A DNA stretch of 63,346 nt, filler included, from Kipferlia bialata (Eukaryota): assembly GCA_003568945.1 (NCBI GenBank). It is 3 parts of 3 records of this genome, joined end to end, with 100 filler letters (N's around TTAATTAATTAA, not from the genome) between each part and the next. Parts side by side here need not be neighbours in the genome. Positions count along the whole stretch, not along the records: positions 1 to 23,341 come from BDIP01000260.1; positions 23,442 to 46,769 come from BDIP01000261.1; positions 46,870 to 63,346 come from BDIP01000306.1. One strand, written 5' to 3'. The notes under the pieces are model-generated. The model worked only from the letters and a program-made list of their open reading frames with translations, had not been told where the DNA came from and made no database searches. Of the stretch, positions 287-63,346 are shown piece by piece (position 1 is the stretch's first letter; every line of letters begins with the position of its first letter). Made by a program: the position numbers and the translations under genes.

Positions 287-477
287 TGGTATCATATATA
301 CATATATATACATATGTATACATACTACCTGTATATATAAATATATGTACATATAGATTCAACCATACCTGTTAGGCTTGATGGGTATCAGGATGGGTGT
401 CTGTGTCTTGGTACCATACTCACACACACCAATATATACATACTATACTCTCTCTCTCTCACACTCTATATATATAC

Positions 478-1849
478 CTGTTAGGCCTGATGAGTATGAG
501 GATGGGTGTCTGTGTCTTGGTGCCACCTGGGACAGGGGTGGGCAGGACAAAGGTGCCCTGGGATTAGTAGGGGTAGTACAGTGTAGGATATTAGACTAAT
601 ATATAATAATATATACACATATATATATTATATTATATTGTGTATGTGGTATCACCGGGTACAGGGGTGGGCAGCACAAAGGTGCCCTACGGTGAGAAAG
701 GACTCTACAGTAAAGGATACATGCATACAAATACACACATATATATATACATTCGTGTATATAGATACAGGACATAGCAGCCCTGGTGATGAGGTGAACT
801 ATATATATATAGAAAATACTGTGTATACAAGAATATATACCTCTATCCCCTGCAGGCTCTTGGTGGGGTATGCCCTGGCCCATGTGTTGAACCATATATA
901 TTATATATACACTTACTATATATATACTATATCCATATACATACCTCTATACCCTGTAGACTCTTAGTAGGGTATGCCCTGGCCCATGTGTTGAACCTCT
1001 TGACCACACCATACTTGAGTGCCCATTTAACCTAGGGTGAATATATATATAGTGTATATATACATAGAGAGAGAGAGAGAGAGAGAGGTATTGTCTTAGT
1101 AATACAGCAAATGTGTTGAACCTCTTGACCACACCATACTTCAGTGCACACTTAACCTATAGTCAGTATATGAATACATATATATATACATATATATAGA
1201 TATACATATATATACATAGAGAGAGAGAGAGAGAGAGAGAGTTGAACCTCTTGACGACACCATACTTGAGCGCCCACTTGACCTATTGTCAATATATAGT
1301 ATACATATTTATACATATATATAGAGAGAGACAGAGTGAGAGAGAGAGAGAGCTGAACCTCTTGACCACCCCGTACTTGAGTGCCCACTTGACCTAGGGT
1401 AGGTATAATACACACACACACATATATATATATAGATACATAGATATATAAAGAGAGATAAATGAACCTCTTGACCACACCATACTTGAGTGCCCACTTG
1501 ATCTGTGGTAGGTATAAAGCATATATACAAATATATAGATACACACGTTGGTACTGTGTAACGTAGTGTGGGGGCTAGACCATGCTTAAGTGCCCACTTG
1601 ACCAAGGAGGCAGATATATAGTATAATGAAGAGAGAGAGAGAGATGGAGAGAGAGAAAGAGAGATATGAACCTCTTGACGATACCATACTTCAGTGCCCA
1701 CTTAATCTAGAGTAAATATATGATATAATAGAGAGAGACAGAAATAGATGGAGAGAGAAAGAGAGAGAAAGAGAGTACCTTTGTGACGGGTGATGTGGTG
1801 AGGTTGTCGATGTGACATATACACATATATACACATAATATAGAAATAC

Positions 1850-1894
<45 letters not shown>

Positions 1895-4800
1895 CCTTTG
1901 TAACGGGTACTGTGCTGAGGTTGTCGATGTGGACGTGGAGGTGGGTGCCCTCACTGGGTGTGAGTGTATGCAATATATACATATATATATGTGTGTATAT
2001 ATTTTGAAAATTGAATGTAACTTTTGAGATTCAGATGCTGAGAAAACCATATATATATGAGTGAGTGTACATACCCAACAGGTTCCAATAGTATCGATTA
2101 TTACGCATAAGCATACCCCACTGATGCCACCAGGGATGGCACAGACACTCTCACATTGACCAGGTCATATATACATATATAACCATTCGAGTATATACAT
2201 ATATGTGTGTGTGTGTACATACCCGACTGATGCAACCAGAGATGGCACCGACACTATCACATTGACCAGGTCCTTCTTGGTGCAGCATGAAACAGCCATG
2301 GCCTGGGGGTAGAATATGTACATCAATACTCGTAATGAATATTAGTATGAATAATCATAGTGTAATATAGACACTCAGTAGAGTATCACGAAAGTTCTTG
2401 GTGCAGCAGGACACAGCCATGGCCTAGGGATAAATATACATATATATACATATTACAATGCATATAATCTACTATATATATAGGGTATTGGTGCAGCAGG
2501 AGACAGATATGGCCTGGGGGTCATTATTGAAGTGATAATATAGCACATTGCATACACAGTACAAATGCAGTACTATATAGACCTGGCATGTTGATACTAT
2601 ATACACTATCATGCACTCTCTCTGTACCTGTGCACTCATTGGAACAGGCTCTCCAGGCCTGGCGGGATCCATGGGGAGGGGGAGGTACCTTGAATCAGAT
2701 ATGGGTATATATATACAATGCAATGATAATAGAATACCTATCTATATATCAATTATTAAGTATATACTATAATCATAGAGTAGTATATATATATGAATAT
2801 TCCAATATGCATAGCAGGATCCATGGGAAGAGGAGTGTGAACCTAGAGGTAAGGCACAGTATCAGATAACCTAGGGTGGGGTGTTGATATATATGTGTAG
2901 AATAGATGTAGGGGTAGGTAAGGAGGGAGACAGAGACAGATAGAGAGAATGCCTTGCCTGCCACCAGGGGGAGGTAGGACATATACACTGGCACAAACGT
3001 ATATTTGTACTAACATATAAATACATACATACATAGAATGTCACTGGTATATATATGTATGTATATATATACATTGGAAACAAATACCGGACCTGCCGCC
3101 AGGGGGAGGAAGGACATACACACTGGCACCCAGCTTGTCATCCATGCCTGACATAAGGGTGTAGAGGGGGAGAGAGAGAGAGAGAGAGAGATGCGACACC
3201 TGCCAGCTGTTAGAATATACAACTTATGATACTTGAGTCTCTATCACCGTACTGCCTTCGATTATGGGTCAGAATTTTCAGATCACCATCTAGACAAAGT
3301 ACCTCACACATAAACAAATACACTAATGTGAACGAATCTATATATAGAGAGAGAGTGTGTATATATAGAGAGAGAGTGTATATATATACTGATACTGATC
3401 CCCGTACCGCCCTTGATTCTAACCACCATCTTGACAAAGTATCTGTATTGTATATGTGTAGAACATAAGTACAATTATAACATATATATATTTATATAGT
3501 ACAAATAGTACATGTAGACCATATGTACTATATGATATAGTATATATATCCATATATACATACCCCCCTTGATTCTGACCACCATCTTGACAAAGTATCT
3601 CACATTGTCGGCTGGCTCATGATCTTCGACCTTTCTGGGTGTAAAAGAGTGTAGAGAGAGAGAGAGAGACGGTCATTGCATCATTGGCGGAGTACCCCGC
3701 TCAAGGATATCTGCTTATATCATATGTATGAATGTTCACCTTCCTGGTACAGTCATTGCATCATTGCCGGAGTACACGGACCAAGGGAGGTTAGGGGGTA
3801 CGGTGGTCTAAGTAAATGAGAAGGAGAGAGAAGGGAGTGGTAAAAAGAATGGGATAGAGGGAGAGAGAGAACATAGTGAAGAGGCAAGAAGGGGGGAGAG
3901 GGAGAGTGGCTCACCTGGATGAGAACACAGGGGGGGGGAGAGAACATGGTGGCAGTGAGAGGGAGGGAGAGAGAGAGACTTGGGGGAAATGAGAGAGAAG
4001 GAGATATAGAGAGAGAGATTCTCACCTGGATGGGGAATGTGAGTGCCTGGCCAGCTGACACGGCAGTCACATCCTGGGCATAAGTGGGATAGGGAGAGAG
4101 GGGGAGAGAGACGGAGAGAGAGAGAGAAAGAGTGCCTGACCAGCCGAGAGGGCAGTTACATCCTGTATTTGTCAGTGGGAGAGCACATATAGATATAGTA
4201 CTCAGCGAGAGGGGGGGGGGAGAGATACAGGAAGGGGGGGGGGGGGGGGGAGATTGAGAGACTCACCTGCACAGAGAGGAGCTCCTGGTTCACAAGGGAA
4301 CGCCTGGGAATCAGATAGAGACGTGGTGATATATGGAGATAAACACAGTGTGACATGGTGACATAGAGAGAGTCATTACATATAGTGTACCCAATTCTAG
4401 TCTTCGGCAGAATACACATGCACTATATATAGATACATAAACTACCCACCTGTTGACGGTCACCCCCCTCTCGCCCTGCACAAAGACATGCTCCTCTCCA
4501 AAGAGGGAGAGAGACACCCTAGAGTGAGAGAGTAGTATAGAAGGGAGAGAGTGATAGAGAGATTGAGAGCAGTAGTCACAAAGACATGCTCCTCTTCAAA
4601 GAGGGAGAGAGCTATCCTAGAGTAAGAGATGAAGAAGAGTGATAGTGAAGAGAGAGTGATAGTGTAGAGAGAGAGTGAAGAGGGAGAGAGACACCCTATG
4701 GTGAGAGTAGTATATAGTATAGAGAGAGTGAAAGTGTAGAGAGAGACCCTGCAGTGAGAGAGTAGTATAGTACAGAGAGTGATAGTGACGAGATAGAGTA

Positions 4801-5375
4801 CATGCTCCTCTCCAAAGAGGGAGAGCGCTATCCTTTGGTGAGAGAGACACTCTGCAGTGAGAGAGTAATATAGAAGGGAGAGTGATAGTGAAGAGGGAGA
4901 GCGAAGAGGGACACTGTAAGTGAGAGAGATTGCATGCTCCTCTCCAAAGAGGGAGAGAGACACCCCAGAGTGAGAGAGGGTGAAGAGGGAGTGTGATACC
5001 AACGAGGGAGAGAGCTATCCTATGGTGAACAAAGGGATAGAGTGAAGACAGTGAACGGATAGTAGTTGACACAGATATCAATTGACATTGAGAGACACAC
5101 TGATAGACGGTTCACTGTACCCAATCAATTATATACCCAAGAGGGTTATAGTTTAGCACCGCCAACCCACCCCGTGACAGTGATGTCCTTGCTGGGGGTG
5201 TATGACACAGTGGCCTGAAGAGGCTCGCCTGAGGGTGAGAACATAGAGTATATATAGAGAGTGAGGATGATACATAACTGTGTCATCAAGTACATCAATG
5301 TTCACCTGGTGTGTAGAGGGGTATGGCCCTGTCCCACTGTACTGACATTTTGCCGGTGGCGCTGAAGTATCCCAT
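478..5375 (-). CDS. Arrestin-domain (alpha-arrestin-like) protein, at least 13 exons, 3' end not found in window
   Basis: Manual splicing gives MGYFSATGKMSVQWDRAIPLYTPGEPLQATVSYTPSKDITVTGVSLSLFGEEHVFVQ...ALTFPIQTTVPPNLPWSVYSG...VRYFVKMVVRIKG...CCTKKDLVNVIVSVPSLVASVGEGTHLHVHIDNLSTVPVTKVKWALKYG...GTFVLPTP. This matches Arrestin_N (YxPGE, LxLxGxE, FP...PxxLPxS, RYxVK) and Arrestin_C (GExxxxxxxIDNxS) patterns. Confidence 0.8.
840..1711 (-). repeat. Exon-echo array around arrestin exon 945-1031
   Basis: Six copies of the exon head (VKWALKYGVVKRF) lie near 1111, 1241, 1351, 1461, 1577 and 1666; five keep the acceptor AG. One exon-tail-plus-donor copy lies at 841-892. Copies are separated by (TA)n/(GA)n. 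Confidence 0.9.
4560..5025 (-). repeat. Exon-echo array upstream of arrestin exon ~4450-4518
   Basis: Repeated acceptor + (V/I)(S/A)LSLF(G/E)EEH fragments near 4577-4620, 4800-4834, 4932-4968 and 5001-5023, in a GA-rich minisatellite. Confidence 0.85.
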
Positions 5376-5720
5376 GTTGATGATACACAGTGGGTAAAAC
5401 TATTGGAAGAGAACTAGGCCAAGGGTCATTCTCGTCAATTTGCCAAAAACCCTTAATTGAACCCTTAGTTTCCAAGATATGTACAGACATCGTGCCGGTA
5501 GCGCTGAAGTATCCCATATTCTAGTGGATAGTAACACTGGTATAAGACTCGTTGTCTCATGTCCAACGAGTTGTGCCAAAAACTCACTTCAACCCTTATT
5601 TACATTGCATAAATGAAGAATGAAACGAACCCGTGTTCTATTCTATTGAACACACTCCTCTCTTAGTGGTGAGTCACCACTGGATACAGGCCGTCTACTT
5701 CAGGTATGTATCTTAATCGT

Positions 5721-8153
5721 CTACTTTAGGTATGTATCCACTGGGACGACACCAAGGACAGCGGCAACAGGGGGGAAGACTATGGCATCAGCAATGTGGA
5801 TATACATATATAGCAGATATATATGTGACATACCACAAGTGTAAGGCTATCATGCAAATAATGATATATGTACATATACGTGTACAATATGTCTGACACA
5901 CCAAGAAGATTGGGTGATTAGGGATGTATATATGATATACTGTCAGTACATCATAGTATATATATTATACTGACATACCAACACAGTTACGCATCTCGTC
6001 CTACAGTATATAACTAACAGTATGTTTAGCAGGCACCAATCAAATAGGTATGGTTAATAGTCGTTCTGAAAGATAGTATATTAATATAGTATATTAATAT
6101 TGTATATTAATACATAGTAGACATGCTCTGAATATGAACACTAATAGCATACCGAGGAAGCCCCTCATCTCGTTCTCAAGTCTCTGTCTGGTGGCCTGTG
6201 AGTGCTTCAGCTCAAGGACCTTGGTCGTCAGTGTTAGTAGTACTATAAGACGAGAGAGGGAACAAGGACATGGGGTAAGATATCCATAATGAGAGCATTC
6301 TTACCTTCTTCTGGTACCTCTGGACCTGTGTCACTGCATCTGTCTTCAGATCCTCACTCAGCCTGGGATGAGGGTGGAGTATACTGCATATAGTAGTCAT
6401 CATTCAATCAATATGTATATGCTTCCCGAAGCAAACGGTCGAAATGATCATGTCAGATACTGCAATATATGATACCTTGGGTTCTTGGCCGCTACCTCAG
6501 CCACTAGCACATCATACTCTGCACCCTCAATGTCAGAGTCTGAGACAGGGGGAGTTGCCTGAGGGTAAGGACTGTATGCAGGTAGGTTAAAATTCAAACA
6601 TTTTTGTTGGTATATAGTACTGAATATCATGAGTCACAGAGTTGAATATATACCCTAACCTTGTAGTCCTCCAGCCACTGCAGTCCCATGCATTTACGGA
6701 TAGTTACCTATACACATGATTGTATACACAAATATATTTGTGTGTATATACTTACTCCTTACCTTGTACTCCTCCAGCCACTGCAGTGCCTCCTTCTGCA
6801 GAGGTGCCAGCTTGGCAAGTGCCTTTAGGAGAGTATCGCTCTGCCTCTGCACCCTTTCACACTCAGCCATGTCCACCCCACTTACACCCCCTCTAACACC
6901 TATACAGTGCTGGATACGGTGAGAGCATGCAATGAGAGGGCCTATCAGACGCAGTACCCCCCTCACATCATTGTTATAGTCCTCCACCACGACGTACTTG
7001 ACCTTGTCAGGGAGAGAGAGACTCATGGTGTCACGGGGAAGGGGGATAAGGCCAATGCTCTCGAAGCTGGACACTAGCTCCTGAGCCTCAACGACAGAGG
7101 ATAGAGCCACGGAATGGTCACGCTGAGAGCTGAAGGTCTGGCGTCAACATTTGAATCTGCCAGTCCAAGCCTATTCTTATCGTTGGACTAATACCTGAAG
7201 AGAGGCGTGGAACTTCGTGCAGAGACCGTACAGGGAGTCGACCAGGGCTCCGCAATCCTCAGAGACAACCTAGAGGGGTCAGAAGTAGGAGAGAGAGCAA
7301 TGCACTCTATATGGAGAGAAGGTAGGGGCTGGGAGGTAGTATACTTGTAATGTAGTGCAAAGTGTACCTTCTCCAGTGTGTGCTCAGACATGAATGCCTG
7401 CACGGCTGCCAGCTGAAAGGTGAGATAATATGGGGGAGGTTGTACATCACTACCAAACATACATGCCGCTTAGTGTCTCTCTCAATGTCAATGGTACAAG
7501 CATACCGTATGAGATACTCATATTTATACACAGTAGGAGACACATGGAAGCCACAATAACAATTAGTGACCTTCTTCTGCAGGCCTGCATCTCTGGATGC
7601 ATCTGTCTCTCTCTGTCTCTCTCTCTCTCTATATATATATATACATATGAGCAATGTACACGTATACACACTACCGTTTTCTGAAGGGCTTTCTGATCTC
7701 TCTCTCTCTCAATGTATATTTATATACAATCATATATATATTGTATATGCATCCTCACTACCTTCTCCTGGAGGGCTGTGTGACTGGATGTCTCTAGGGA
7801 ATCTAGAGCAGAGTACAGGGCTGGAGGGTAAGTGACGTTAGTACACAAATACCGTAAATGTCTATTGTGCCATACATACTATGTATATATAGACTAAATG
7901 TAAATATTTCAATGTATATGTAGAGGGGGAGGGATGACTGAGGTACTGACACAATCCACAACATCAATAGACTTTGCCTACGAATGTTCACATTATTCAA
8001 TGTATACTTCCCCACTATATACGTTATGAATCATAGATACCCTCGACATCCATTGCCTTGACCCTCTCCGTGAGAGCCTTCAGTCTCTCACTGGGAGTGA
8101 GAGGCATACTACAAATTCCATACTTGCACAGTGCACAACCCGTGTAGAGGGTG

Positions 8154-8184
<31 letters not shown>

Positions 8185-9695
8185 CATCAGCACTATGCAG
8201 GTACCTCATCTCTGGGTTGAAGCCCTCAAAGTGCTGCATCAGTGTCTGCTCCTCACCCTATGGGTCAGCACTACATAGTATAAGGATACACTACACATAC
8301 TGATACTAAATAGAGTTTCTACATTCTGTAGGTATGTATCCTACTATGGAGAGAACTACATATTAGAAGGCGAGAATCAATATGTGTATATATACATACA
8401 CACACTTATATGTATATACACAAATACCTCTGAGGCACGCTGTCTCTTGGGTACATCTGCAATTATAGCAGCAAACTCTCCCACAGTTTCTGTCTCCTGT
8501 CCCTCTGCAAGTCTGCGGGTCACATCGTCGTGAAAGAGGGCGTCAAGCTCCTCTTTCAGAGCCTCCTCCTTGATACCCTCCTCACACTCGCGGAAGTTGA
8601 ATGGACTTATGGGCCTAGGTCTTGACTTGAGGCTCTGGTCTTCAGCCTAAGGGTCAGATTCTACTGCTCTCTACATATGTATATATATATATATGTTTGG
8701 TGAGACATATTAGAAGGCGAGAGTTCATATATACTATACATATGATATATATATATATATATATACATACCTCAGAGGCACCCTCTCCCTTTGGGTCACT
8801 GCACTCTACAGAGATGGACACAGATGCTGCCAGAGTATCAGTCTCCTGTCCCTCTGCAAGTCTGCGGGTCACATCATCGTGAAAGAGGGCGTCCAGCTCC
8901 TCTTTCAGAGCCTCCTCGTTGAGACCCTCCTCACAGTGGCGGAAGTTGAATGGACTTATGCACCGAGATCTTGACACAAGACTGCCCTCCTCAGTAACAA
9001 GTTGTTACTAACAACCTCCACAACCGCACTCTGAGTGGGAAGGCCATCAAGAGAGAGGCCACACCATCTGGTGTCGTCCTCGAGGAGGGCCTCAACCTTC
9101 TCAATGATTCTCAATGAAACTATCGTTGAAGATACCAGCAAGGACATCGGCAGCAGTGGAGGGGGAGGATAGGATAAGAGCCTTCTCACTGGTAGGCTCA
9201 GTGCATGTCCCGGTGGCAGTCTCTGGCGAGGGGGGGACGGTTACACCAGTGACATCAGCGATACCAGTTGCATTTGGGCCAATGTTGGGAATGAACCTCT
9301 TAAGTGCCCTGGCCCTCTTGACCTCGGCCTCGTAACGGGCTAGGTGCTCTCTGGCCACAGAGTTGGTGACACGGATGTGGTGCTTTCTACACTCTCTGGT
9401 GGGTTAGATAGATACATTTAATTATATATCAAGTATTAGAATGAACGCAATATATATGCCGTATCTTATACTGTTTCTCACTGGAGGAGACTACAGATAT
9501 CACACATACGCAGCCAAGTATATATACATACTCATGGAAGTATTACTATGTGAGTATACCATACATAGACCATATAGTAAAGTTGTTAAAGTAGGAGAGT
9601 GCATACTATCAATAATGTGCACAGTACCTGGTGTGTGCCACCAGCTCAGTGGTAGGGATCATTTCACTGCAGAACATGCACTGGATAAGTTCCAT
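5721..9695 (-). pseudogene. Multi-exon gene (N-terminal C2HC zinc-finger-like motif, helical/coiled-coil body) disrupted by 10-bp and 14-bp insertions in exon 2
   Basis: Starts MELIQCMFCSEMIPTTELVAHTREC (CxxC...HxxxC). Exon 8771-9395 reads through only if 9108-9117 and 9001-9014 are removed. Downstream exons (8428-8646, ~8204-8257, ~6763-7138 etc.) are open, and the end is probably LGVVPVDTYLK* at 5721. Confidence 0.6.
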
Positions 9696-10065
9696 ATTGA
9701 TGCAGGCTCAGCTTAGTGTGTCAAGAGAGAGTGAGTGAGGCCCAGCCCAAGCTCGGCCATATCTTCCGATTCGGAGATTTTTGGCAATAAGGGTTTCTTA
9801 CAGAGTACACTAAACTAATGAAATGACTTGATTCTATGACTCATAGAGTCTATTAGGCGTGTGTAGATGACTCACTGAGGAGGGACACACTTGAAGTACT
9901 ATACTTCACAAACACAGAATGTCTATTGACCACATCTACTTAACAGAGTAGAGAGGGGAAAGAGGGAAAGGGCAGACATCCCTATAGTGCAGTAAAGTAA
10001 GTAATAGAAGAAATAAATAGACATCACCCAGAGAGAGAGAGTGGCGGAGAGAGAGACTACTCCCA

Positions 10066-13000
10066 TCAGTCCCACGAGAGCTGCTCTCCGCTGACACTGT
10101 CGAAGGTATGTCTCTCCTCCCACCTGGCCACCTCGAGCAGTGAGTGCTTGATACCATGCCAATAGTACCAGTCCGACTCCATCTCATGCCCGTACTTACA
10201 ACGGCCAATCCCTGGCTCCCCTGCATACCCACTTCCAACGCAACGCCTCTCTCCCCCACCTCCTCCTACGGGCAGTGTAGGAGTATCTACATCAGTTAGA
10301 TCCTCTAGTGCGTCAGTGAGAATACTGGAGCCCTGTGTCTGTGCGACTAGAGTGGGGCTCCCTGAGAATAGTTCCTCTACCAGCTGTGTATTGCGGTTGA
10401 GGATGTTCTGTGGAACAGAGGCCAGCTTACGTAGGTCACGTAAGGGAGTCACTCTCTCTACAACAGGGCCTCCGAAGTGGTCTCTTGGTTCCTGCTCCTC
10501 CTCCTCCATGTGCTCCTCGTATCGCTGCATGTACAGACAGCCAGAGATAGCATGGGGTCAAAAGGACTGAAATATCAATGATGTCAATGATGTCAATGAT
10601 TCCGTGATATATATTAATATATGTCTGTATTCTACCTCATAGTGTGTCTGTCCAGTGAGTACCAGACCCTCAACAGCACATATAATCATTACTTATGTGT
10701 AGGTGTGTATATATACACACGTGTTACCTCTGACAGGGCCTGTCCAGTGAGTACCAGACCCTCAGCTGTCTCTATGTGAGTTGTCAGGTACTCCTGCTGT
10801 TAGACAGTTTTACAGGAGTTGCAGGATCCCTTTCAAGTGACAGTAACACTACACAAGTCTTGAAATGTAACCCTACCTCCATTGTCATTCCAGGAGATAA
10901 ATACTAGAAGGTATGTTGTGTACATATGATTCTAAGACTCACCTCCAGTGCCACTCTGGGTGGTGCGTGTATCGGCCAGCAGAGGATGTTGTGGATGTAG
11001 CTCATGGCAGCGGACCACCTATATTAAGTCTAGTAAATAGGACACTATTTCTTATCACTCCCTACATATATATGTGAATGTATACAATACTTGTACTTAT
11101 GGCATGTTGTGCATGTAGCTCATGGCAGCACACCACCTGTGTTTAGGTTGTACTCAGAATTGGAATAATATATTATATATATTGTACTACTGTAATGTGT
11201 GTCTCTCTCAGTGATGTTGTGCATGTAGCTCATGGCAGCACACCACCTATACTAAGTCGAGTAAATAGGACAGTGTCACTCCCAACATATATATGTATGT
11301 ATGTATAGAACTACTTGTATTGAGGGCTTGCTGTGGATACATATAGCTCATGGCAGCACACCACCTGTGTTTAGGTAGTACTAGGAATTGGAATGATATA
11401 TATTGTACTACTGTTATGTGTGTCTCTCTCAGTGATTATAGTGCCTACTATCACCAAGACTAGTGTCGTAGCACACTCACTGTTGTAACTCTCTCGTATA
11501 CTTATGTGTATGTATCACTAGTAAGTTCTCTTCCTAACACATGGTATGTGTCCCATACCTACTCGCCATCCTGTAGAGCGTGTTGCTACTGGCCTGGTCC
11601 TGGGATCAGTGTATCTCCAGTATATGCATCATATAGCAGTATTCATATATATACGGGCTGTTTAAGATAATACATGCTTTCGATACCTCAGGTGTCAAGC
11701 TAGCAGCATAGCTGACGAGTCCCTCATTGATGCCGTGTCTGATGCACAGGTCAAGGGCAGGGTTGGCCTTGCTCTCATCCCACACCCCGTCTGATATGAG
11801 GATGGCAGCTATATATATATATATATATAGATACATATACGTATGTATGCGTTACAATATACCTGACACTGAGTCACTCAGGATAGCAGGCAGGACCCGT
11901 CTCATAGTCAGGAGGGAGTAGGCATCTTTCTGGTGGATAGTGTCACCTGGGAATGAGTGGTATGTTAATGTAGTAAATGTATAAGTGCGAATACATGTAT
12001 GGGGAGTACGTCTAAGTTTTTACACATCTCTCTGGTGTATATATGTCACATAGGTCGGAGTGCGATTCTGTACATTATTATGAACAATGAACAATAGGTA
12101 TCAGTATCAAGTCCTGATTCAGGAGGCCATTGTATCAGAGTCAGTTAATACTCGCCTGACGAGAGTAGGCTGATGACGAAGCGTAGCAGGGGTGCCTCGC
12201 TATCTGTCATGACACCATTGACAGCAGCAGTGACCTGAGGTAAGAGTACTATGTAAAACAGAACTAATTACTATACCGAGCCATATTGTAACCAGCCAGG
12301 CATCATGCACAGCCGCAGAGACCTGACATGAGTGTGTCTTCCAATGTATATGAGTCAGAAGTTATATATGAGGAGGAATTGTATTATAAATTACTATATA
12401 TATATACTACTATTATATATATACTGTTATACTATATATGTACTATTGTATATTATATATATACATTAGTGTATTTCTACCTGGTCTTGTGTGAGTTGAT
12501 GCACAGCACTCATCATGGACTCGGATAGTTCAACAGCGGGGTATATGCTGCTCTGACGCCTGTGCAGCCCATAGATGTAGGGCTGCAGCTGCTCTTGCTC
12601 TGGGTGTCAGAGGTGCTGTATGTGATAATGATACTAACTCAAAATATATCATACTGAGCTGTTTCAATAATACCTCAATGATTGTAAATATAGATACCTG
12701 TATCACTAAGACACAAGATGCATGACGGAGGGTGGGGTCCCATCTTCAGAGAGCTGTAGGCCAGACAGCGAAGGATGTCTGTGCCAGTGCGTCTGGGATT
12801 AGTAACTAATACCTGGGATACCAATACATTTGGGAGTTTCCCATTGGTAACGCCAATACAGATGCAAGACACATTAGCAAATGCCTCACAACAATGTGTA
12901 TTCATCAAAACATGACGAGTGATACCAGGTCATTGCCTGCTATATCATATAGGCAACAACAAGGTGTGGGGAGATATAGATCTCCCACATAGGTGGTACA

Positions 13001-18591: not shown

Positions 18592-18623
<32 letters not shown>

Positions 18624-19046: not shown

Positions 19047-19079
<33 letters not shown>

Positions 19080-23441: not shown

Positions 23442-23442
23442 C

Positions 23443-45600: not shown

Positions 45601-45641
<41 letters not shown>

Positions 45642-51331: not shown

Positions 51332-51370
<39 letters not shown>

Positions 51371-51981
51371 TAGGGAGAGTCATCAACACATTAGTGCCGA
51401 AATAGAGAGATGTATGTCAGCCACCATCTGGATGCGTCTGGGGTGAGACAGGGAGAGAGCTAGGGTATTGAGGGGGGGTGGGCATGCAATGAGCCATTGC
51501 CCACGCAGATACATATAGTTCTTTCATGTATAGAGAGTTTATGTAAGTATAATAACCATTGAACCCACCTCACGTTCTGTGCCACCTGCTGTCCGTGCTC
51601 CAGGGTGCACAGCACTCTCCAGCTGCTCCTGGCACATAAGGGAGATGCGACACTATCACATAGTGACCACTACTCCAATACCCACCTCCTCCCTGCCACG
51701 TAGTTCTTGTAGGCCACGCTGAGCAGGTTCCTCTCCTCCACACTCAGCTCCTTCCTGTCTGTGGCTATGGTGGTGGTGTGGTGGATCATCTCTGGCGGTG
51801 AGGGGGGGGGGGGGGATAGAGAACAACTACTACTCTTTAACGGCTTTTTTTTTTCTTTTCCCCCCCCCCCCCCCCCCCCTTCACACGTACCCATCCGGCT
51901 ATTGGTTCTCTATGTCCCTCTGTCTCTCTCACCCCAGCACAGCCTATCTCTGGTGGAGAGTGTACTGGTAGTGGAGGGCAT
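49926..51981 (-). CDS. Divergent 14-3-3 protein
   Basis: [106 protein letters not shown]. The start exon is tentative. Confidence 0.92.
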
Positions 51982-52024: not shown

Positions 52025-54154
52025 ATGGCGCGCTACCTGTGTTCAGACCGTTCATCAGTATATGAAGCAGTATATAGTATATTGTTGTTGTATTTGTCTG
52101 TGTATACTCTCACTCCAGAGGTGAGCCCGAGCTGTTTCTGCAGTATATATATATATCAGTATATGAAGTTGTGCATAATGGTATATACTGTATTAGTACT
52201 TACTCCAGGGGTGAGCCCGAGCTGTGTCTGCAGTGTGGCAGAGACACCCTAGTACTGGTGGAGATGAGCGACGGAACTAGGTGGGTATATGTCTACATAT
52301 ATGCAAGTATACCCCCCCTCCTCTCTCTCCCTCTCATATCCAGCCAGTGCCCGAGATGCTTCCGGACTGGCTTCCTGTCCCCCCCTGGTGCCAACCCCTC
52401 CAAGCCGGGCCAGGCAGTGCCCCTCTCCCTATCGGGGGCAGAGTGCAGTGTGAGGTATGCGTTTGTATACTGTCTGTATGTATCTCATGTATCTATTGAA
52501 TGCGATGCTCACTCCAGGACCCCAGAGGGTGATGTAGTAGACATCTCCGACCTGATTGGGGGTGAGGAGGCACTAGACACCACACCTACAGATGCCCCTG
52601 CTGCTTCCAGCACTAAGGATGATGCCCCTATCAAGGGTGCAGGTGGGGCAGTGAGTGAGAGAGAGAGAGTAAGGAGTGTGCAGGAGATGGCAGACACCTA
52701 TGCCAGACAGACACAGACAGAGGGTCTCCTCTCCTTACTCTCCCTCCTCTCCCCTGCCCTGTCCTCTGCCCATGTGTCCATGCCACACACTGTGCATGGG
52801 GGGGACAGGGTGCCCATGGAGGTAGAGGTGGTGCCAAGGTGGGTTCTTCTCAGAAGAAATTGTGTGTATACTATGTACTTCCAGAGATAGCCTTCGTATC
52901 TATAGCTTTGCAGATGTATTTATTGAACACTGTTGTACTATACCATCTCTCACCCCCAGAGATGGCCTTGGCAGGTCTGTGCGCATTGGCACCGATGCCA
53001 TCTGCAAGGAGTGCACCCTGACCCTGTCCTGCATCAGTGACGATGAGTGCATGCCCCCCACCCCCCTCCCCCTCTCCCTCTCTGCCTCTGGGGACAGACT
53101 GGTCACATCATTCGGCACACTAGAGGCAGAGGGTGGTGTGTCTACAGGCACAGGGGAGGATGTGTGTGTCCCCCCCGGTGTGTATGGACTCAGACTGTAC
53201 TGGAGGGGCATGGTGCACACAGAGAGTGTGACTGTGAGGCCCAAGGAAGAGGAGAGAGAGAGGGTGGTCTATGTCGACAGGGTCAAGGTGCTGGACCCTT
53301 CTGTCGTGGTGGAGGTGCCTGCCACAGAGAGTGTAGAGAGTGTTGAGAGTGTTGAGGCACCAAGTCCCGTGACAGAGGAGGCTGTTGTGGAGGAGACTGT
53401 TCCTACTCTTGAGGCTGTGTCTGTATCCCCCTCTCCCTCTCCCGCTCCCTCTCCCATTGAGGAGGAGAGAGAGGAGGTAGAGGAGCCAGCCCCTATTGCT
53501 GCCGCCCCCGCCCCCTCGAAGCCCCTCCTCTCCCTGTCTGTACCTCCCTTTGCCGTAGTCGATAGGGATGTGGACATCACCGTGACCAGGGAGAGGGGTG
53601 ATGCCTCTAACATGGTGGGTCAGCTGACTGTGAGGGTGGGTGAGGTGGCAGACGGGGCCGGGGAGGGGGTGGCCCTGGAGGCCCTGGCCTGTGTCACAGA
53701 GGGCACCACAGACACAGTCAGGTACTCATTCACATCCAAGACACCCGGTGACTATGTGGTATCAGTGCAGGGTGCCACTCTAGGGGTCGACACAGTGCAG
53801 AGACGGGTGCTGGTCCGGCCATTCCTCTTTGCAGACGGGACCGCCTCTGTCTCCCTCTCTGCCTCTCTCTCCACCCCACCCCTCTCCCCCTTCCCCTCGG
53901 TGGGTAGGGTGGCTGCCAAGCTCTCTGTCTCCGGCTGTGCCAGGATAGGCTATGAGGTGGAGGGTGAAACCGATGCCAGCAGGGTGGTGCTGGTGGGTGA
54001 GGGTGAGCACACCATGCTGTACGATGGAGGTAGGGGCAGGGCGGCACTCAGAGGGCCCTCGGGGCAGTATGTGATACCCCCCTGCAAGCTGGTGGGCAGT
54101 GTGAGACCTGTGGTACAGGCAGGAGAGGCAGAGGGGAAGGTGGTCATTGTATGA
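52025..54154 (+). CDS. Hypothetical protein: N-terminal CxxC...CxxC motif, Ig/filamin-like beta segments, E/P-rich linker
   Basis: CLQCG and CPRC in early exons. Long terminal exon ~52959-54154 includes VRYSFTSKTPGDYVVSVQG. The start exon could not be phased confidently. Confidence 0.55.
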
Positions 54155-54356: not shown

Positions 54357-56019
54357 TCACTGCTTGACCTCTGTTGCGTCAGGCTCGACACTGCTACTCC
54401 TGACAGTGAGACTAGGGAGAGAAGGAGGAGGAGGGGGGGGGGGGACACGCAATCCGTATATAACCTTCGGAAGTATAGTGTATACCATACCTGGTGGATG
54501 ACAGTGAGCCTATGCTTGTGACGCTGCCACTCCTCCTTCTGCGCCTTCCCCTCTTCCTAGACCCATAGGTCTCACGGAGGGCGTCATAGATCTAGGGGTG
54601 AGAGAGTGGGTGATACCAGATATACATATATGAGTGACTAAGGTAAGTGGTATGTACCTGAGTGCTGTCTGCCCTCTTTGTCTTGAACCCATCGAGAGAG
54701 GGTGCCGAGACCAGCTTCCTGACCCTCCGCCTCACCACCACACTCAGCACCCTCACCCTCACATACACCAGCCACATGCATAGTCCATAGAATATGGCAA
54801 GAAGGGCATACACAATGGGCAGCATCAGCATGTTCTTGGGCTGGTGCACGTCGAGGAAGGGGTAGATGGAGAAGTTGAACAAGGCAGAGAAGGAGAGACC
54901 CATGCAGGAGTAGACGGATAGGGTGGCAAAGAGAGGCTTGATGTTGCACAGGGGGAACTCAATGCGGGAGGCTGAGGTTAGAAAAGAACAAAATAATGAA
55001 CTGCTTTTCTAGGAGGGAGGGAGGATAGGAGAAGAGGGGGGGCAAGTGAGAGTGACTGCATTGCGGCCATGAGGCGTGTATTCTTCATACCTACGAGCTC
55101 GAACATGACAAAGATGAGTGTCACACCGTGAGCACCAATGCCATACACTGGGGTCAATGAAACAGGAAGACTATATGAGAGAATACTGTGAATGCATATA
55201 TATACCTAGGTCGATGTTTCCGTGGTCTCTTCTGAAGTGCTTCCAGAGGAGGGGCCAGAAGATGCAGGTCTGGACGTGAGAAGGAATCGCTTAGTGAATA
55301 GAGGCGAGAGGATGCAAGAGAGAGGGAGAGAGAGACGTACTGTCAGCAGGTGCATTGGGGCTGCCACGTTCAGCATCATCTCTGCATAGTGGGCAGCATG
55401 GGAGGGCCTGGAGCGCTGGTACCTGGGATCAGGGAGACAGACACAAGGACAGAATCAATGACTATAATCAATCCGACCGTCAAAGACCCCCTCACATTGT
55501 GGCCAGCTTGGATGGACCCGGGATGATGTAACGCTGGGACACAACCCAGGCCTGCACTGCGTATACGGCACTGATCATGTTGGTCCTGGGTGGTCAGAGG
55601 CATGTGAACAAGAGAGAGACGTCATGTTCTACAGACACACACTGACAATTGAACACCAGCTCTCAATCTTGATGCCTACACACGCACCAGTTTGTCCATT
55701 GCACAAAGAACCGCAGCTTGCGTGTCCACACTCCTGTCACCAGCACTGTCAGGTGCAGGGCCATGCTAGGGTGAGGGAGGGAAGAATGGTCATATAATGA
55801 CAAGTGAATCCCACTCCAAACCAGCCATACCTAATGCAGCGAATCACATAGAGGTGCGTGGTACGCACGATAGGCGACGTGGCCAGATCTCTGAGGGATG
55901 GATGTACCATAACGCGACACAAGAGAGGAGATCGTCATCGAGAACAGAATCAGTGAGATGGCCCTTATTCTAATACTTTTGACGATCGTCAACTCTGTAC
56001 GATCACAAAGATGTCTCAT
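54357..56019 (-). CDS. FAR-17a/AIG1-like (rolling-stone-like) multi-pass membrane protein
   Basis: Hydrophobic exons with family motifs LRFFVQWTNW, TCIFWPLL, IGAHGVTLIFVMFEL and FSIYPFLD, followed by a basic tail. Confidence 0.7.
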
Positions 56020-56041
56020 CTTGCCGTATTGCTACTGGTCG

Positions 56042-59000
56042 TCAATCTCCTCTTGCCGGATGAAGCAATAATTCTACATACACCGTGTTCCCTGCAAATG
56101 GGAGAGCAGAGGGCAAGTATGTGGTCAACACATGGGCAAATTGTGTGTCATCTATTCATTGTATCGTAATAGACAACTCCATCAATCCCCCCCTTCTATA
56201 GGAATAGGGGCGATGGCGACACTGGTCTGAAGGATGTGTGTCTGTCTGCATTGTGCACTCCATCCTCACCTGTCAACACACCGGAGGCACACACACGGAA
56301 CCTGAAGAATGAGAAATGAACATGTGCAAAGGTATATACTTGGCATGTCAACTATACACTTAGAGAGTGCCTTGCGTTACCTTGATGCGATGTCGACCTG
56401 TGTCTGCTGTGAGACCAGTGCAGTATACGCCAATGTATGGGAGCAGCCAGGCTCCAGGGAGAGGGAGACCTGGCTAGGCCCCATGATGGGAAGGGAGAGA
56501 GAGAGGGCCTCCACAGAGGAGTTGTCCACAGCCACGGAGAGAGACACTGCGTCAAAGAGAGCATGGGATGTCAAGGTGAGGGCTAGAGGGACCACCCCTC
56601 CTGCTGATGCGTCCACACCCTCTGCCACAGAGAGGCATACACCTATGGGGGGCAACACCTGGCCGACCCCTCCCTCTCTATCCCTCCTGGCCCAGCCCAG
56701 CTCAGGTAGATGCAATGCCCCATCCTTGACAGATAGGACATGCTCGATGGACTCGCCCAGTGCGATGGAGGGGGAGTAGGGGTGGGGGATGGAGACCACA
56801 CCCCGGTAGCTGATGCACACCTCATCGTCCATGTCCACCCCCATCTCTGCATCTACACCTCCCTCATGGGCATACAGCTCTGGGGCAATGGACCCACCCC
56901 CACCCTGTGTAGAATGCACAACAGCAAGGTGCACAGCACGAGAGCGTCTCGACCGCTGGGTCTCCTTCTGACGCCACACCTGGGGGTGAGGCATATAGAT
57001 ATCAACCAGGTTAGAGTTTATAGTGGTATATAGTGGTATATACCTTCTCCCTGGCTATGCTCCGCCTAGAGTTTGATGCATTGACCGTCTCCTCGTCCTT
57101 GATGGACTCGAACTGACCAAAGCCCATGGGGTTGATGATGCGTACACCGTCCCTCTCCTCGTTGTGCTTGTCCTCAACCTGGAGTCAGACTATATATATA
57201 CAACTCTCTCTTAATGCAGATACAGATATACCTGGCGCCTAAGTGCGAGCTGTATGAGCCTGTGGAATGCTGCAGTGACCGTCGGGTGAGGGTGTGCCGG
57301 TGCCTCCCCCCCGGTGAATGCCATGACCATCGGGGCAGGGGCCTCACACACAGGCCTCTCCTCTTTAGCCAGAGTCACCTTGAACACCTCGGTCTCACCC
57401 CCCTGGCCCATACCGTCATCCAGAGTGTTGCTGGATAGGCCAGTCACATGGGGTCTGTATGCACAGACATCAGAGAGGGTCCACCCACTCTCAGTTGTGG
57501 GTGTATCATCACTGTCTGTGGGTAGGGTGTCACCCACCGGCATGGTCAGCACAGCCACAGGTCGGGTGGTGCCTGGGGTCAGGAGGGGTACAATCTCAAA
57601 TACAGTACTTGTAGAACGAAGGCTATCATTGATGCCTTCAATGTATAAATATACTACATCGATACTTCAGTAGTGTACCTAGCAGCTTGATGCCCACCAG
57701 CACATCTGCACAGGAGGAGGTGTCATCTGAGCAGGGGGTCACGGGGCCATAGCTAGAGTAAGACAATATAGTAAAAGAGAGGTAATTGAATCGTCAGTAC
57801 ATGGTGCAACTGGACCACCATAGAGAGGTACATGAATACAAGTGTGAAAGACATTATATAAATGATTACATACCCTATTGCCCTGATTGACTGCACATCT
57901 GCTGTCACCCGACAGACCTCGGCTGCCCTCTCGGCCTCTCTCTCAGCGGGGAGGTCACGGTCAATCTGGGGGGTCAGAGAGATACATATAGAGAGTAGTA
58001 CATTCCAAATATGAATGATGTAGCCCATACTCATATACATATACACACACCTCCTCAGCCACCCTCTTTATCCGGGGCATGTCGTATGTATCAACCACAA
58101 AGAAGGAGAGGGAGGTGGTGTTGTCATCGGGGCACAGGAATGTGAAGGGTAGAAGGAGGGGTGCCTCGGGTGACACATAGAGGGTGCAGGGGGAGGCCAC
58201 AGAGATACTGACACCAGCAGTGCCACCGGGCACTGAGACACTCCTCTCTCTCTCCTCCTTCCTCGCTGCCTCTGCCTCTGCCTCCGTGGCCACAATCTCT
58301 ATGGGGATGTACCCCTCCCTCATACCAGCACCCTCACCCAGCACACAGCCACCTAGCATACCCGTCCACCTGGGTGTAGGACCAGGCTCCACACCCTCTC
58401 CCACCCTGGGTGTGTGCCATATGACCCTGCCTGCTAGGTCACACCTTAAGTGTAACTCACCCACCTCAGGGGCAGGCATGGCACTGCAGTCCACCCTGAG
58501 TTCTGCTGTCTGCAGAGACCCCCCGAAGGATGTCCTCTGGGGGGCAGTAGGGAGGGAGAGAGAGAGGGCAGGGGCGGCAGGCTGCGTGGGTATCACGCAC
58601 AGGTGGGGGTGGGGGCACATGAAGTTGCACAGGAGGGAGGTGAATATGTCGGTCGGGGAGTCGTTAGGGGATGTGACACCAGAGGGTAGGCATGAGAATG
58701 AGGCGTCGTTGACCATGGATAGCATGCTCCCTCTGCCCCTGGTGTGCCTCCCACTCATGCGCCCACTGGCCCTGGGGTTACACAGACATATGTATAGACT
58801 AGTACATATGTAAAATAGTATACATATGAACTATATGTATATGGTACCACTGCCACTGATACCTAGCGTTGGCCAGTGCCACTGATATGGAAGGGGAGGC
58901 AGGTCTGGCAGGAGATGCACAGGGTGTAGACAGGGCTAGGGCATGTGCCGCCAGGGTGGCTGTGGATATGGGCCAGGCCAGGGAGGGGTGGGACGAGTGG

Positions 59001-62000
59001 CAGGGGGAGATGAAGGTGGATGGGGAGAGAGACTCAGGGGCAGTGGGGTGCACCAACAGGGGTTCCAGCTCTGAGGCCACGTCCACTACTACATCGTGCC
59101 ATCCATTGACAGAGAAGCACTCGTTGCGGGGCCTGGGATCAGTACATAATACTCTACGGTTGAGATACATATAAACAGTAGTATTTGTAATAATGTATGA
59201 GTACCCACCTGACGGTGCAGTATGCCCCGAGCTTGAGTGAGACCGATGCTATCACCCACAGACCGGAGGTGGGAAGAGTGAGACCACCTGGGGTAAGGGT
59301 CGGAACCTAAGGGATGGGGGGGGTCAGTTACTTCAATAGTGAAGCTCAGTAGATACGGAATCAAAGACACCACCATGCATGGGCCCCACCTAGCACGACA
59401 GCCGCACTGCTCTGGCCGTGTGTCCCCCCAAACTCCAGCAAGTCCTCCATGACGTTGGACTGAACTGGTGCCACTGCTCTGTTGTACATGCACATGCCAT
59501 AGCCCTCGCCCTCAAACCCACCCAGCTCTATATCAACACTGGACACAGGCTGGGGGGCATCACTCTCGCTCTCATCCCCGGGGGACTGGGCGATGCCGGG
59601 GGAGGGGGTCGGGTCGAGGAGGCGCAGGGTCACGGAGATGTCACGAACCTTCAGACGCACACCTGGGATGAATAGATACATCGTATGAACACCAAATACC
59701 CCTATCTTTCATATCCTATATACCCTAATGTACCTGGTAGAGGTGTCCTCAGGATGAGACCCACGCAGAATGGCACGTTGCTCCTGATACCTAGACCACC
59801 AGATGGACAGGCAGAGGAGTCTGGGCCGGGGATGGGCTGGAGTTAGATGATAATAGTGCGAGAGACACAGTAATAGTTGTATATTTAGGAATCACTGCTT
59901 CTTACCTCCACACTCCTGCTTCCCATCCTGGCCGAGGGAGAGTCTCTACTGGACAGACCATAGTTCAGTCTGGGTAAGGATAACATACAGATGAACGGGG
60001 TTGTTTGTGTACTGTATCGCTGCCCATACCTCTCCCCCTGCGTGTGCTGTGCGTTCACCCTGTGTCTGAAGTACTCAGCTGGGGTCATGCCGCTCATGGC
60101 ATGGCCTGGGGGGTGAGACAGGTGTAGGGATTAGTTAGTGTATATGTGTATATGTGTGTGTACCTGCCCCTGCCTCGACCTCCCTGGCCCACACATCTGA
60201 CACGTTGTCACTCCTCAAGGGGTAGTACCTCCCAGGGAGGGGGGTGGATGCATCGTCAGAGGGTGCTAGGACACAGGCAGGTAGGGCACAGACGTGGCAC
60301 AGGGCGGGTACCCCCACAGACACACCGACAGGGGGTGCGGGGGAGGAGGCAGAGACACGGCCAGTGACCACGTCTCTCTCCCTCTCCCTCTCCCTCTCCT
60401 TCTTGGCCATGCCTGGGGGGTGGGAGAGCTAAACACCACTGTAGTGTCTGGTGACTATACAACATACGAGGTATATCACACACCTAGCCTGTTCTTGAGC
60501 ACATCCAGCTGCTGCACTGGGTTGAGTCCACCCGCACAGGGTAGGAGACGGCGGTACAGACCGGGGGCCTGGGGTGAATACAAAAACATACACGTATATA
60601 TAAATGTATACTTATCATACTCGTATATCATACCTGGTCCGTGTGCCACTTGACGGCTGCTGTGAATGCGTGTAGGTATGCCAGGGACCTGACTGCACCC
60701 CAGACCCGGGTGGCCTGGGGGGCGGCATCCCTGGGGTGAGACGCATGCAGACCAAAGGATAGTTCTTATAGATACTAGAAGAGAGAGACAGAGAGAGAGA
60801 GAGAGAGATGGTATCCCCCATACCCGTCCATAAGCCTTGTGCTGCCCAGGATGTCGTAGAATCCTAGTCTTCTGACCAGAGCCAGGGACCCCGTTTCACA
60901 GCCTGCTATGCTCTTGCTCCACCTGGTAGGTCAGCAGAGAACACAGTATGTTGGAGTCTGGAAAGACAAATGTTAATATGCTCGTATATACGTACATGAG
61001 TCTGTTTGCGGCATAGATCAGGAACAGTGCCCCCTTTCTGGGCATGGCCATGGACACACACCGCACAGCAGCAGCCTGGGGGGTGAGAGATATATATACA
61101 CAATAACAATAATGATGATATGAGAGAGAGACAGGAAGTTGCGGCACACACTCTCATACCTCGTGTATAGAGAGAAACTAGTGGAATACGTACCTCGTAG
61201 TATATGGCCTTGACCAGGTCGCTGTCATATCGGGTGTACTGCTGTGATGTGAGCACGTCTATGCACTGCTGGTCTGACCCCAGACTGCCCTCCATCAGGG
61301 CAAGCAGCAGAGGGATGCGGCTGTAGGCAACACTGTTGGTCACACTGTCCCTGGGGGTGAGACATACACACATTGAGGAATATATACATCATACATGTAT
61401 ATAGAAACAGCCACTAACCTGTCATCTGTTGCTGTCTGCCACGCTGTGCCTAGGCTCTTCCGACAGTTGGTGTACATGTCCCTGACATCATCGTTGTCAT
61501 ACTGGCCACCCTCCCTAGACAGCGAGGATATACCCCTCTCAGAGAGCAGGGAGGCCAGCTTATCAGCGTGGAGGAAGGTGCACATCCCATCATAGGTGTG
61601 GACATTGGCACGGAACAGAGCGCGGGAGGTCCTGGGGTGTGAGAGGAAGATTACTACCATACAGCAAGATCAAAGGGATATGCATATCACTAACACACCT
61701 GCAGTCATTTGCTGCTCTCCTCAGTGCCAGGGTATAGTCCTCTCTCTCTCCATCTCTACTTATACATATATATTCATACCTATAGTCACTGGCAGCCCTC
61801 CTGAGTGCCAGGGTGGCCAGTCTGTACTGGCCCAGCTGGGCGTACAGACACCCTGGGGGTCAATGTACAAAGTGTATATATACTATATACTGGTATGTAC
61901 TAGGTACAGATACTGAATGTGTATACAAACTATAGTCTGATATATAGTAGACACAGACACTTGTTCAGACACCCATGGGGTCATGGTATAGTAGAGAAAT

Positions 62001-63100
62001 TACAGAGTGGATAAGAAAACAGTGGTCCCATGGTAGTTGCACACCTAGGTACAGGGCCACTGACTCTGGACTGTTACCAGCAGACAGAGACTCGGGGGCA
62101 CGGTCTGAAGATGAGGAACTAACCAGTCACCAAATGTGAATGATATATGCTCAATACACACCTGTGTCGTCTGAGCCTCTCTTGAAGATTCTGACCTTCC
62201 AGGCCTTCCTAGACGTATCTGCCCTGGGGGTCAGTCAACAGAACACAATGCACACACATTCTTTTGTATATATAGTTGGAGTGATTAGTATATATACTTA
62301 GAGTCACATACCTATAGCTGAGCCTGTCCAGCCTCTGCTCCATGACCCTTAGTACAAAGCGGGACACAAACTCTCGCATGAAGACTGGGGCCTGAGAGTG
62401 AGGAATACAACCTAAGAAAACCTCAAAAGATGCTTCTGTATACTCAAATCACTCATAAGGCACAACATACAAGTGCTATAATACTCTGTACCTGCCCGTC
62501 TATCTTGACCTGTCTGTCCAGTCCCTGCTTGGACCACCGGGCATTGCCAGAGGCACCGTGCAGACCTAGGCGTCAGTATCAGTACAATATATAGATAACG
62601 AGGAATTAATACACCCTGATTATTCTAAGTATAGTACTCCACCTGCGTTTGTGGAGTGTGCGAGGTATCTGATATATACTATATACTATATACTATATAC
62701 AATATACTATATACTATATACAAGAATGAACAAATGAACAAAAGAACACTGTCTGTATTACACTACACTATATATACTATACCCCACCTGCGTTTGTGGA
62801 GTGTGCGAGGTATCTGTCGAGCCAGTTGCTGAGGGATGCCACCGTGGTTGTGTTGGGCAGGGTCAGGTCAAGGGTCCAGAGACGGGTGAGGGAGCCAGCG
62901 GGGGTCTTGCTGCCCTTGCTCTTGCCTGGGGGTGAGATGATAGAATAAGATATACGAAATATATACAGCATTACGCATATATGATTGTGTCAACGTACTC
63001 TTTGAAGTCCCCATTGGCGACACCCTGACACTAGTGATGGACCTCAGCTGGGAGTGGAGGGAGGAGGTGGCGTCGGGGAGGGGGGGCATGCCGGGTAGCC
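56042..63100 (-). CDS. Probable TRAPP III subunit TRAPPC8/Trs85 (5' end beyond window)
   Basis: VFMREFVSRFVLRVMEQRLDRLS..ADTSRKAWKVRIF, LGQYRLATLALRRAASDY and AIYYEAAAVRCVSMAMPRKGALFLIYAANRL parallel recalled TRAPPC8 motifs (P.mE..i..l; A.l.EqAA.cf...RK.af....Ag.rf), followed by beta-rich C-terminal exons. Confidence 0.6.
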
Positions 63101-63122
63101 TGGTTGTTAGCTATATATATAC

Positions 63123-63159
<37 letters not shown>

Positions 63160-63346
63160 GTGGCATCGGGGAGGGGGGGCATGTCGGGTAGTCTGATTGT
63201 AAGCTATACATATACGAAGAGAGAGAGAGAGGGAGAGAGAGAGAGAGAGGAGGTGGCATCGGGGAGGGGGGGCATGTCAGGCAGTCTGGGTGTTAGATAT
63301 ACTTATACATGGGGGGGGGGGGGGGGGCCCGGTGACCAAAAGAAGT

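Follow-up and report, generated by a model that had tools for sequence, protein, structure and literature searches.

Gene models and detection of exon copies

We analyzed a window of 63,346 nucleotides made up of three scaffolds of the metamonad Kipferlia bialata, joined by N-padded linkers, in which introns carry partial copies ("echoes") of the exons that flank them. The published genome is an Illumina-only SPAdes assembly of a free-living, probably diploid fornicate with 124,912 GU-AG introns, and a diploid k-mer pattern is reported for it (PMC5874029). All counts given here refer to the window, for which 181 exons in 15 gene models were curated by hand until the frames were open; one model was split, and the stretch at about 8990-9700, where no consistent open frame could be traced, was left out. 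A self-trained gene model took many echoes for exons and was used as a guide only. The curated model of the cysteine synthase gene (CysK) is identical to the deposited protein (337/337 residues) and that of gene 7 matches the deposited KIPB_001755 at 1278/1278 residues, differing solely by an earlier start and one retained intron; the long exon of the gene 3a region matches KIPB_001751 at 100%. The deposited proteins are a similar kind of prediction, made with RNA hints, and are thus not a fully independent check of the frames. A Pfam scan of 16 single exons recovered 14-3-3 in three and PALP in three. Further, a contig of sequencing run X2, taken as RNA on a guess and skipping five GT-AG introns, bears out the model of gene 1 at six exons and five junctions; the real exons 3564-3634, 3740-3807 and 4026-4073 are among them.

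Alignment of the masked exons to their own flanking introns (local, hits accepted at a score of at least 24) returned 108 hits with a strict polarity. Heads of exons lay upstream in 51 hits and tails downstream in 47; no tail lay upstream and no head downstream, and the other 10 hits fell short of the exon end. As 98 of the 108 reach the exon end, the repeat unit spans the exon-intron boundary. Two of the shorter hits were dropped (one at the threshold score, one abutting the exon), leaving 8 that all lie towards the expected exon end and 106 copies for analysis. These occur at 73 of 336 exon edges (22%, or about one in five; 34 acceptor and 39 donor edges) and touch 56 of the 181 exons, 60 of 166 introns and 12 of the 15 gene models. 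The threshold was reached by 0.58% of pairs of an exon with an intron of another gene and by 15 of 2672 non-flanking pairs within genes. The count is a lower bound, as short or old copies (23551-23811) and orphan tails (22952-23312) went unscored.

Each echoed edge has one to six copies with an exon part of 18-47 nt (5th-95th percentile), repeated head to tail with a median period of 110 nt (interquartile range, 91-128). TRF arrays lie beside real junctions at 1184-1541, 20575-20874, 21915-22394 and 63057-63308. Introns holding both kinds of copy have the tails before the heads in 10 of 10 cases, and none of the 108 hits covers both ends of an exon, the exceptions, at 8428-8989 and 23551-23811, being outside the count. 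A preliminary description of this DNA had reported polarized copies, one to six per edge, as pervasive in most genes on all three scaffolds. Copies were detected in all eight intervals that it named (6, 3, 3, 8, 3, 2, 1 and 2 of them), the head-upstream, tail-downstream polarity was borne out at the exon edges of the window without a reversal, and the copy number was the same. "Most genes" stands as well; "pervasive" needs the qualification that the distribution is uneven among scaffolds (34/108, 30/127 and 9/101 edges echoed). Density varies strongly by gene or region, and genes 6, 14 and most of 15 (26300-27900, 54380-63000) have short introns and almost no echoes.

Authenticity of the copies

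We compared contigs of runs X1 (DNA) and X2 with positions 3400-8340 at an identity cut-off of 95%. X1 contigs bridge six of the eight scored copies of this interval together with their exons, with 0 differences and at a depth of about 290-420; a seventh copy is contained in two overlapping X1 contigs and the eighth lies outside the matches listed. The X1 contigs are a separate assembly, though possibly of the source sample. Exact runs shared between copy and exon reach at least 55 nt in 0 of 106 copies and at least 31 nt in 17, the other 89 sharing less than 31 nt. It is therefore very unlikely that the echoes are diverged alleles of a diploid or mixed culture that a short-read assembler stitched in tandem. 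The Illumina-only assembly of a diploid (PMC5874029), the lack of long reads and the allele-like appearance of the differences between copies and exons speak for such an artefact; the bridging contigs, the shortness of the exact runs and the presence of up to six different versions in one array speak against it.

Duplication geometry and intron growth

A tandem duplication over an acceptor would leave a head upstream of the exon, whereas one over a donor would leave a tail on the downstream side. When 110-nt duplications are placed on the gene structure without echoes, 81% of the tolerated ones (those neither inside an exon nor covering two junctions) span one junction. In such compact genes, tandem geometry would by itself give both the polarity and the focus on junctions. 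This supports the earlier proposal that duplication across splice junctions is the source of the polarity and leaves no need for a special system. Upstream of gene 1, at 5489-5520 (minus strand), lies a duplicate of its start-codon region (5360-5385) that involves no splice site, which shows that the duplications are not tied to such sites. Fresh tandem duplicates without an exon part were seen in an intron (50741-50854; period 56, 98% matches) and in intergenic DNA (165-287).

Repeat units account for 11,016 of 31,212 intron bases (35%, 164 introns), exon-derived parts for 9%. Intron length follows 121 + 119 nt per copy (r = 0.87), and echo-free introns have a median of 99 nt. Echoes together with microsatellites had been put forward as a possible main engine of intron growth: the large share holds, yet at one third, not most, of the intron sequence "main" does not.

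Codon signature of the copies

The exon parts of the copies differ from the real exons at 212 positions, of which 144 are third codon positions; 138 differences are silent and 74 are replacements, with 26% silent expected. The corresponding ratio of replacement to silent differences (pN/pS) is 0.17 (95% edge bootstrap, 0.12-0.24). It is 0.17 in the nearest copies only and 0.17 in farther ones, 0.14 on the acceptor side and 0.20 on the donor side, and 0.20 between copies, rising to about 2 in the wrong frames. Copies that kept their GT or AG (0.17, n = 86) do not differ from those that lost it (0.18, n = 20). Neutral simulations of a copy beside an exon drifting at silent sites gave 0.52-0.58, or 0.49-0.56 with the detection step included. 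Thus, plain duplication followed by decay does not yield the observed ratio; detection bias was also rejected as the source of the silent excess, as the simulated detection step does not lower the ratio. Two genes with few copies lack the signature (gene 2, 0.90 from 9 differences; gene 3a, 0.79 from 5).

Divergence amounts to 65/1873 (3.5%) at non-degenerate, 40/478 (8.4%) at two-fold and 102/512 (19.9%) at four-fold sites. The non-degenerate changes run from GC to AT more often than the reverse (31 vs 16, p 0.04), are no more conservative than random (p 0.14) and include 5 stops, while the four-fold changes are symmetric (35 vs 38). The replacement changes thus look like neutral decay and the four-fold changes like differences between working genes, and we infer that protein constraint acted on the copies for the greater part of the time since they separated and was absent for a short part only. 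A gap interrupts the exon part in 1 of 106 copies, and the six-copy array of exon 945-1031 (minus strand) carries many private silent changes.

Intron halves and breakpoints

The intron half of the copies has a median identity of 0.68 to its counterpart; unrelated introns give 0.60, and a divergence of 20% would predict 0.78-0.82. It reaches 0.9 in 0 of 84 copies, including 16 with a perfect exon part. Identity next to the junction exceeds background, so the halves are homologous there. Compared with each other, copies have similar exon halves and common breakpoints, and the intron halves of 40 such pairs have a median identity of 0.68 and at best 0.88; inner breakpoints are common to the copies within most of the 20 multi-copy edges. 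A dinucleotide run adjoins the inner end in 65 of 106 copies against a background of 40%, a figure biased by alignment ends and not counted as microhomology. The two-unit, 228-nt higher-order repeat at 10985-11436 (minus strand) contains two copies with unrelated intron halves and identical exon halves, the latter differing from the real exon at two codons.

Splicing and splice-site choice

The real sites are used in the X2 contig, which carries real exon bases and joins real donor to real acceptor at 5/5 junctions, three of them across five copies, and excises in one piece a 652-nt intron (4519-5170) whose copies the DNA contigs reproduce. This is one transcript, and assembled contigs hide minor splice forms. 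The copies keep AG in 43/53 and GT in 43/53 cases, a retention (0.85-0.89 per base) no higher than that of adjacent exon bases; selective loss and extra retention of the sites were both rejected on these grounds. Copies score below real sites on average (6.1 vs 9.4 bits for acceptors, 4.0 vs 8.4 for donors). Site strength alone cannot explain the choice, however, because some copy outscores the real site at 16/34 acceptor and 9/39 donor edges. Nor do the copies form an acceptor-donor pair, given that tails precede heads, and pairing over the shortest intron would favor them. Exon definition is therefore the likely rule by which real sites are chosen, as the preliminary description had proposed alongside stepwise splicing, for which the window gave no evidence. 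Under this rule, an acceptor followed by a donor would be met on the real exon only, and most mis-spliced products would carry a frameshift or a stop, as would result from splicing at a copy's site for 78 of 86 copies. Alternative splicing that stays silent by way of in-register AG-GT was rejected, with in-register GT/AG pairs at 5/73 edges and AGGT at 2/73 echoed versus 19/263 other edges.

The CysK exon 40260-40349 (minus strand) ends in a GC donor at 40259 that the deposited, conserved protein requires, and its tail copy at 40169-40189 offers a stronger GT donor 91 nt downstream. Acceptors throughout the window have a branch-point-like CTNAC 2-4 nt before YAG, that is, a fused branch point and acceptor. 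The spliceosome of Kipferlia is described as reduced, with 87 of 174 proteins (PMC6679479).

Relation to known repeat systems

The preliminary description knew of no precedent for the structure, but it is of a known kind, the mirage-type repeats of lancelets. In the accessible text of the two amphioxus reports (PMC3087553, PMC3902484), mirages at Adh3, the globins BflGb6 and BflGb9, troponin C and PGBD5 are tandem copies of 5' or 3' exon-intron boundaries in 3-6 units, 81-100% alike and 10-160 long, many with AG/GT; splicing is undisturbed, the origin is called unclear, and a route to new exons and introns is proposed. The Kipferlia echoes likewise span the boundary, affect both the 5' and 3' sides, keep AG/GT in many but not all units and leave normal splicing undisturbed, as judged from one RNA contig in which minor forms would be hidden. 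They differ in their host, a unicellular metamonad, in their occurrence at 22% of exon edges and not just at single loci, in the narrow unit length of about 110 nt, in intron halves largely decayed into microsatellite and in the strong silent-site bias, which those texts do not report for amphioxus.

In the model of Rogers (PMC3443670), intron gain likewise starts from a tandem duplication within a gene, which multiplies splice signals and can be spliced out with the protein unchanged. That model duplicates exon-only DNA across AGGT to give in-register AG-GT, whereas the Kipferlia unit extends over a junction that was already there and shows no enrichment of in-register sites (5/73). Introner elements similarly add intron DNA with splice sites on a large scale, and a term search found no mention of Kipferlia (PMC9860276); unlike them, the echoes of this window match only their own neighboring exon (15/2672 non-flanking pairs reach the threshold) and form no dispersed family. 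Tandem exon duplication can give mutually exclusive exons, which resemble the echoes as neighboring copies of exon sequence with a coding signature. The echoes are half-exons with one splice site, however, and decay of whole-exon pairs does not explain the strict polarity, for which reason decayed mutually exclusive exons were rejected. Our literature search found no codon bias in mirages and no junction repeats in Kipferlia, although the supplements of PMC3087553 may bear on the former; the strings "duplicat" and "microsatell" are absent from the main text of the genome paper (PMC5874029). Thus, the density of echoes in a protist and their codon signature appear to be new, and the structure itself is not.

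Origin of the exon halves

The account that we consider somewhat better than even is that tandem duplications over one splice junction, of the mirage type, created the units and that misaligned homologous recombination with diverged working alleles founded or refreshed their exon halves. Selection would remove placements that cover a whole exon or intron, and the polarity would be forced by tandem geometry. With introns of low complexity and rapid change, the edges of exons would be the only good homology, and exchanges between alleles would fall there. If an echo on one allele recombined with the real exon of another, the exchange would add a unit, keep the old inner breakpoint and import the silent variants of the other allele, after which a short neutral decay would bring AT-biased, non-conservative changes and some stops. 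Metamonads lack nonhomologous end joining, so that their repair leans on homologous recombination (PMC8516963).

The animals that bear mirages are generally regarded as highly polymorphic. For K. bialata, the allelic account would need a silent diversity of about 0.15-0.2 in the species, and several results weigh against it. No second allele surfaced in homologue searches (four protein clusters with one member each, weak evidence) or in DNA contigs over 3400-8340, which lack other letters and have even depth across exons, though contigs drop variants. Two metagenome scans, with 597 pattern matches each and none confirmed, found no relative. The intron half is more diverged than an allelic model predicts unless slippage is fast; exon-part and intron-part similarity correlate at donors (rho 0.52) and not significantly at acceptors (0.19); microhomology at the breakpoints of the copies was not demonstrated; and the data come from one window with 15 gene models.

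If the echoes were ordinary mirages, duplicated on the same chromosome and decaying neutrally, the exon half could seem better kept through detection and the rapid change of microsatellite spacers. The geometry, the fresh intron-only duplicate at 50741-50854 and the amphioxus precedent (PMC3087553) all suit this history. It predicts, however, a pN/pS of 0.5 for copy versus exon and of 1 for copy versus copy where 0.17 and 0.20 were observed, some young units identical throughout where there are 0 of 84, and an AT drift at four-fold sites that is missing, and simulated detection bias did not lower the ratio; neutral decay is already contradicted in this window, and we regard the history as quite unlikely. 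Selection on consequences could restore the constraint if deletion or conversion between the direct repeats often put copies in place of the working exon sequence and damaging ones were purged. This would explain the low ratio, the scarcity of gaps and a conserved exon half beside a decayed intron half without any use in RNA, and 17 of the 106 copies share at least 31 nt exactly with their exon. By our arithmetic, however, the ratio comes out close to 1 under two-way conversion alone, and such second-order selection needs a population diversity above 0.4 to operate at the 20% silent divergence observed; the replacement changes look random and include stops, and DNA contigs over 3400-8340 contain no joint that deletes a unit, although contigs drop rare forms. 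We judge this explanation unlikely.

The codon signature would follow directly from use of the copies in mRNA, either by nested (inside-out) splicing via echo sites or by non-canonical joining of an echo half to the remainder of the real exon, with selection at the level of the protein. The GT or AG is kept in 75 of the 88 copies that reach the junction, copies beat the real site at 16/34 acceptor edges, the spacers are intron-sized (median 80 nt) and the six-copy array at 1111-1705 has an in-register AG-GT. Against this stand the direct real-to-real joints at 5/5 junctions with real exon bases in the RNA contig, the scarcity of in-register pairs (5/73) and of AGGT at echoed edges, a pN/pS that is the same in copies without a splice site, the 5 stops and a retention of GT/AG no higher than that of adjacent exon bases; moreover, nested splicing would conserve sites rather than codons. 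It carries a similarly low probability to neutral decay. A diverged paralogue or second, hybrid subgenome, since lost by loss of heterozygosity, might instead have been the donor, the echoes being scars of imprecise exchange. Such a donor gives silent-biased differences in a homozygous-looking strain, but six distinct versions carrying private silent changes are hard to derive from two sources (variants present in some copies only comprise 29 silent and 25 replacement changes), and the one paralogue of CysK that turned up, with 222 identities across roughly 300 aligned residues, has diverged far too much; a lost donor, too, is rather improbable. A broader idea is that the echoes serve the whole genome as a stock of spare exon halves, their coding shape kept by regular swapping into the working exon through direct-repeat recombination or non-canonical RNA joining, which we hold to be doubtful though a little less so than the alternatives above.

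Catalog of features in the window

Table 1. Echoes and related features of the analyzed K. bialata window (real exons given where identified).
Feature	Positions	Strand	Basis
Gene 1: real exon 478-557 flanked by a tail (369-416) and a head (639-686)	369-686	-	alignment
Gene 1: real exon 945-1031 with one tail (841-893) and six heads (1111, 1241, 1354, 1463, 1579, 1667)	841-1705	-	
Gene 1: tails 1779-1814, 2117-2166, 2958-2994; heads 2395-2423, 2488-2513; exons 1896-1953, 2223-2302, 3093-3147	1779-2994	-	
Gene 1: tails 3277-3308, 3413-3444, 3669-3706; head 4130-4162	3277-4162	-	
Gene 1: 652-nt intron with three scored heads (4577, 4800, 4933) of exon 4450-4518	4519-5170	-	
Gene 2: tails 6660-6687, 7571-7599	6660-7599	-	alignment
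Whole-exon duplicate: two open, in-frame 219-nt copies (8428-8646, 8771-8989), donor on each; treated as exons, not echoes	8428-8989	-	
Gene 3b: tail 10648-10672; three heads of exon 10943-11018; 228-nt higher-order repeat	10648-11364	-	
Gene 3a (KIPB_001751 region): three tails (12930-13164) of exon 13255-13320; tail 16579-16595	12930-16595	-	
Gene 4: 24 copies; exon 22394-22462 has four tails (21917-22340) and four heads (22566-22858)	17617-22858	-	
Four tail-like copies, real exon beyond scaffold end; unscored	22952-23312	-	
Linkers 23342-23441 and 46770-46869; inner gaps 21399-21461 and 45360-45438			N-padded
Three 19-nt heads of exon 23910-24080, each closed by GT; below threshold, uncounted	23551-23811	+	
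Gene 7 (KIPB_001755): 22 copies at edges of exons between 28428 and 35447	28598-35623	+	
Cysteine synthase gene CysK: 14 copies, pN/pS 0.10	39470-43994	-	
Gene 9: five copies	45309-46492	-	alignment
Gene 11: one short tail copy	47915-47928	-	alignment
14-3-3 gene: four copies (50410, 50496, 51146, 51414)	50410-51437	-	
Gene 13: one head of exon 52209-52280	52120-52144	+	alignment
Gene 15: tails 61703-61733, 62643-62671; heads 63150-63191, 63243-63284	61703-63284	-	

Some features listed in Table 1 differ from the typical echo. The whole-exon duplicate has a pN/pS of 0.63 on 44 codons and may have arisen from a tail echo by gain of an acceptor, along the lines of the model in PMC3087553. The three 19-nt heads close with CAG-GT or CTG-GT, matching the register of a CCCAG that lies 19 nt inside the real exon, and could be alternative micro-exons or a nascent intron. 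The coding-like stretch at 8990-9400 (minus strand) has two frame changes and weak short-intron candidates only; very short introns, sequence errors and a damaged gene are all candidate explanations. The frame is also broken across the intron 12152-11863 (minus strand), where the deposited model stops although further coding exons lie beyond it on that strand, with no start region evident.

Biological implications

Echoes make up one third of the intron length in this window and, in practice, mislead gene finders. They make K. bialata a natural test of exon definition, as near-perfect decoys 100 nt away, often stronger than the real sites, are passed over, and the GC donor of CysK with its GT-bearing tail copy is a natural test of splice-site choice. 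Mirages have so far been curiosities at a handful of animal loci (PMC3087553); their frequency in Kipferlia allows them to be measured, and the codon signature provides a sharp, inexpensive way to test their origin. Such a pN/pS comparison should also serve in lancelets and sea urchins. A store of spare exon halves, if true, would mean cassette-like variation or repair of thousands of ordinary genes in a protist. If the echoes come instead from exchange with diverged alleles, the reading that we prefer, mirages would mark recombination confined to exons in very diverse populations.

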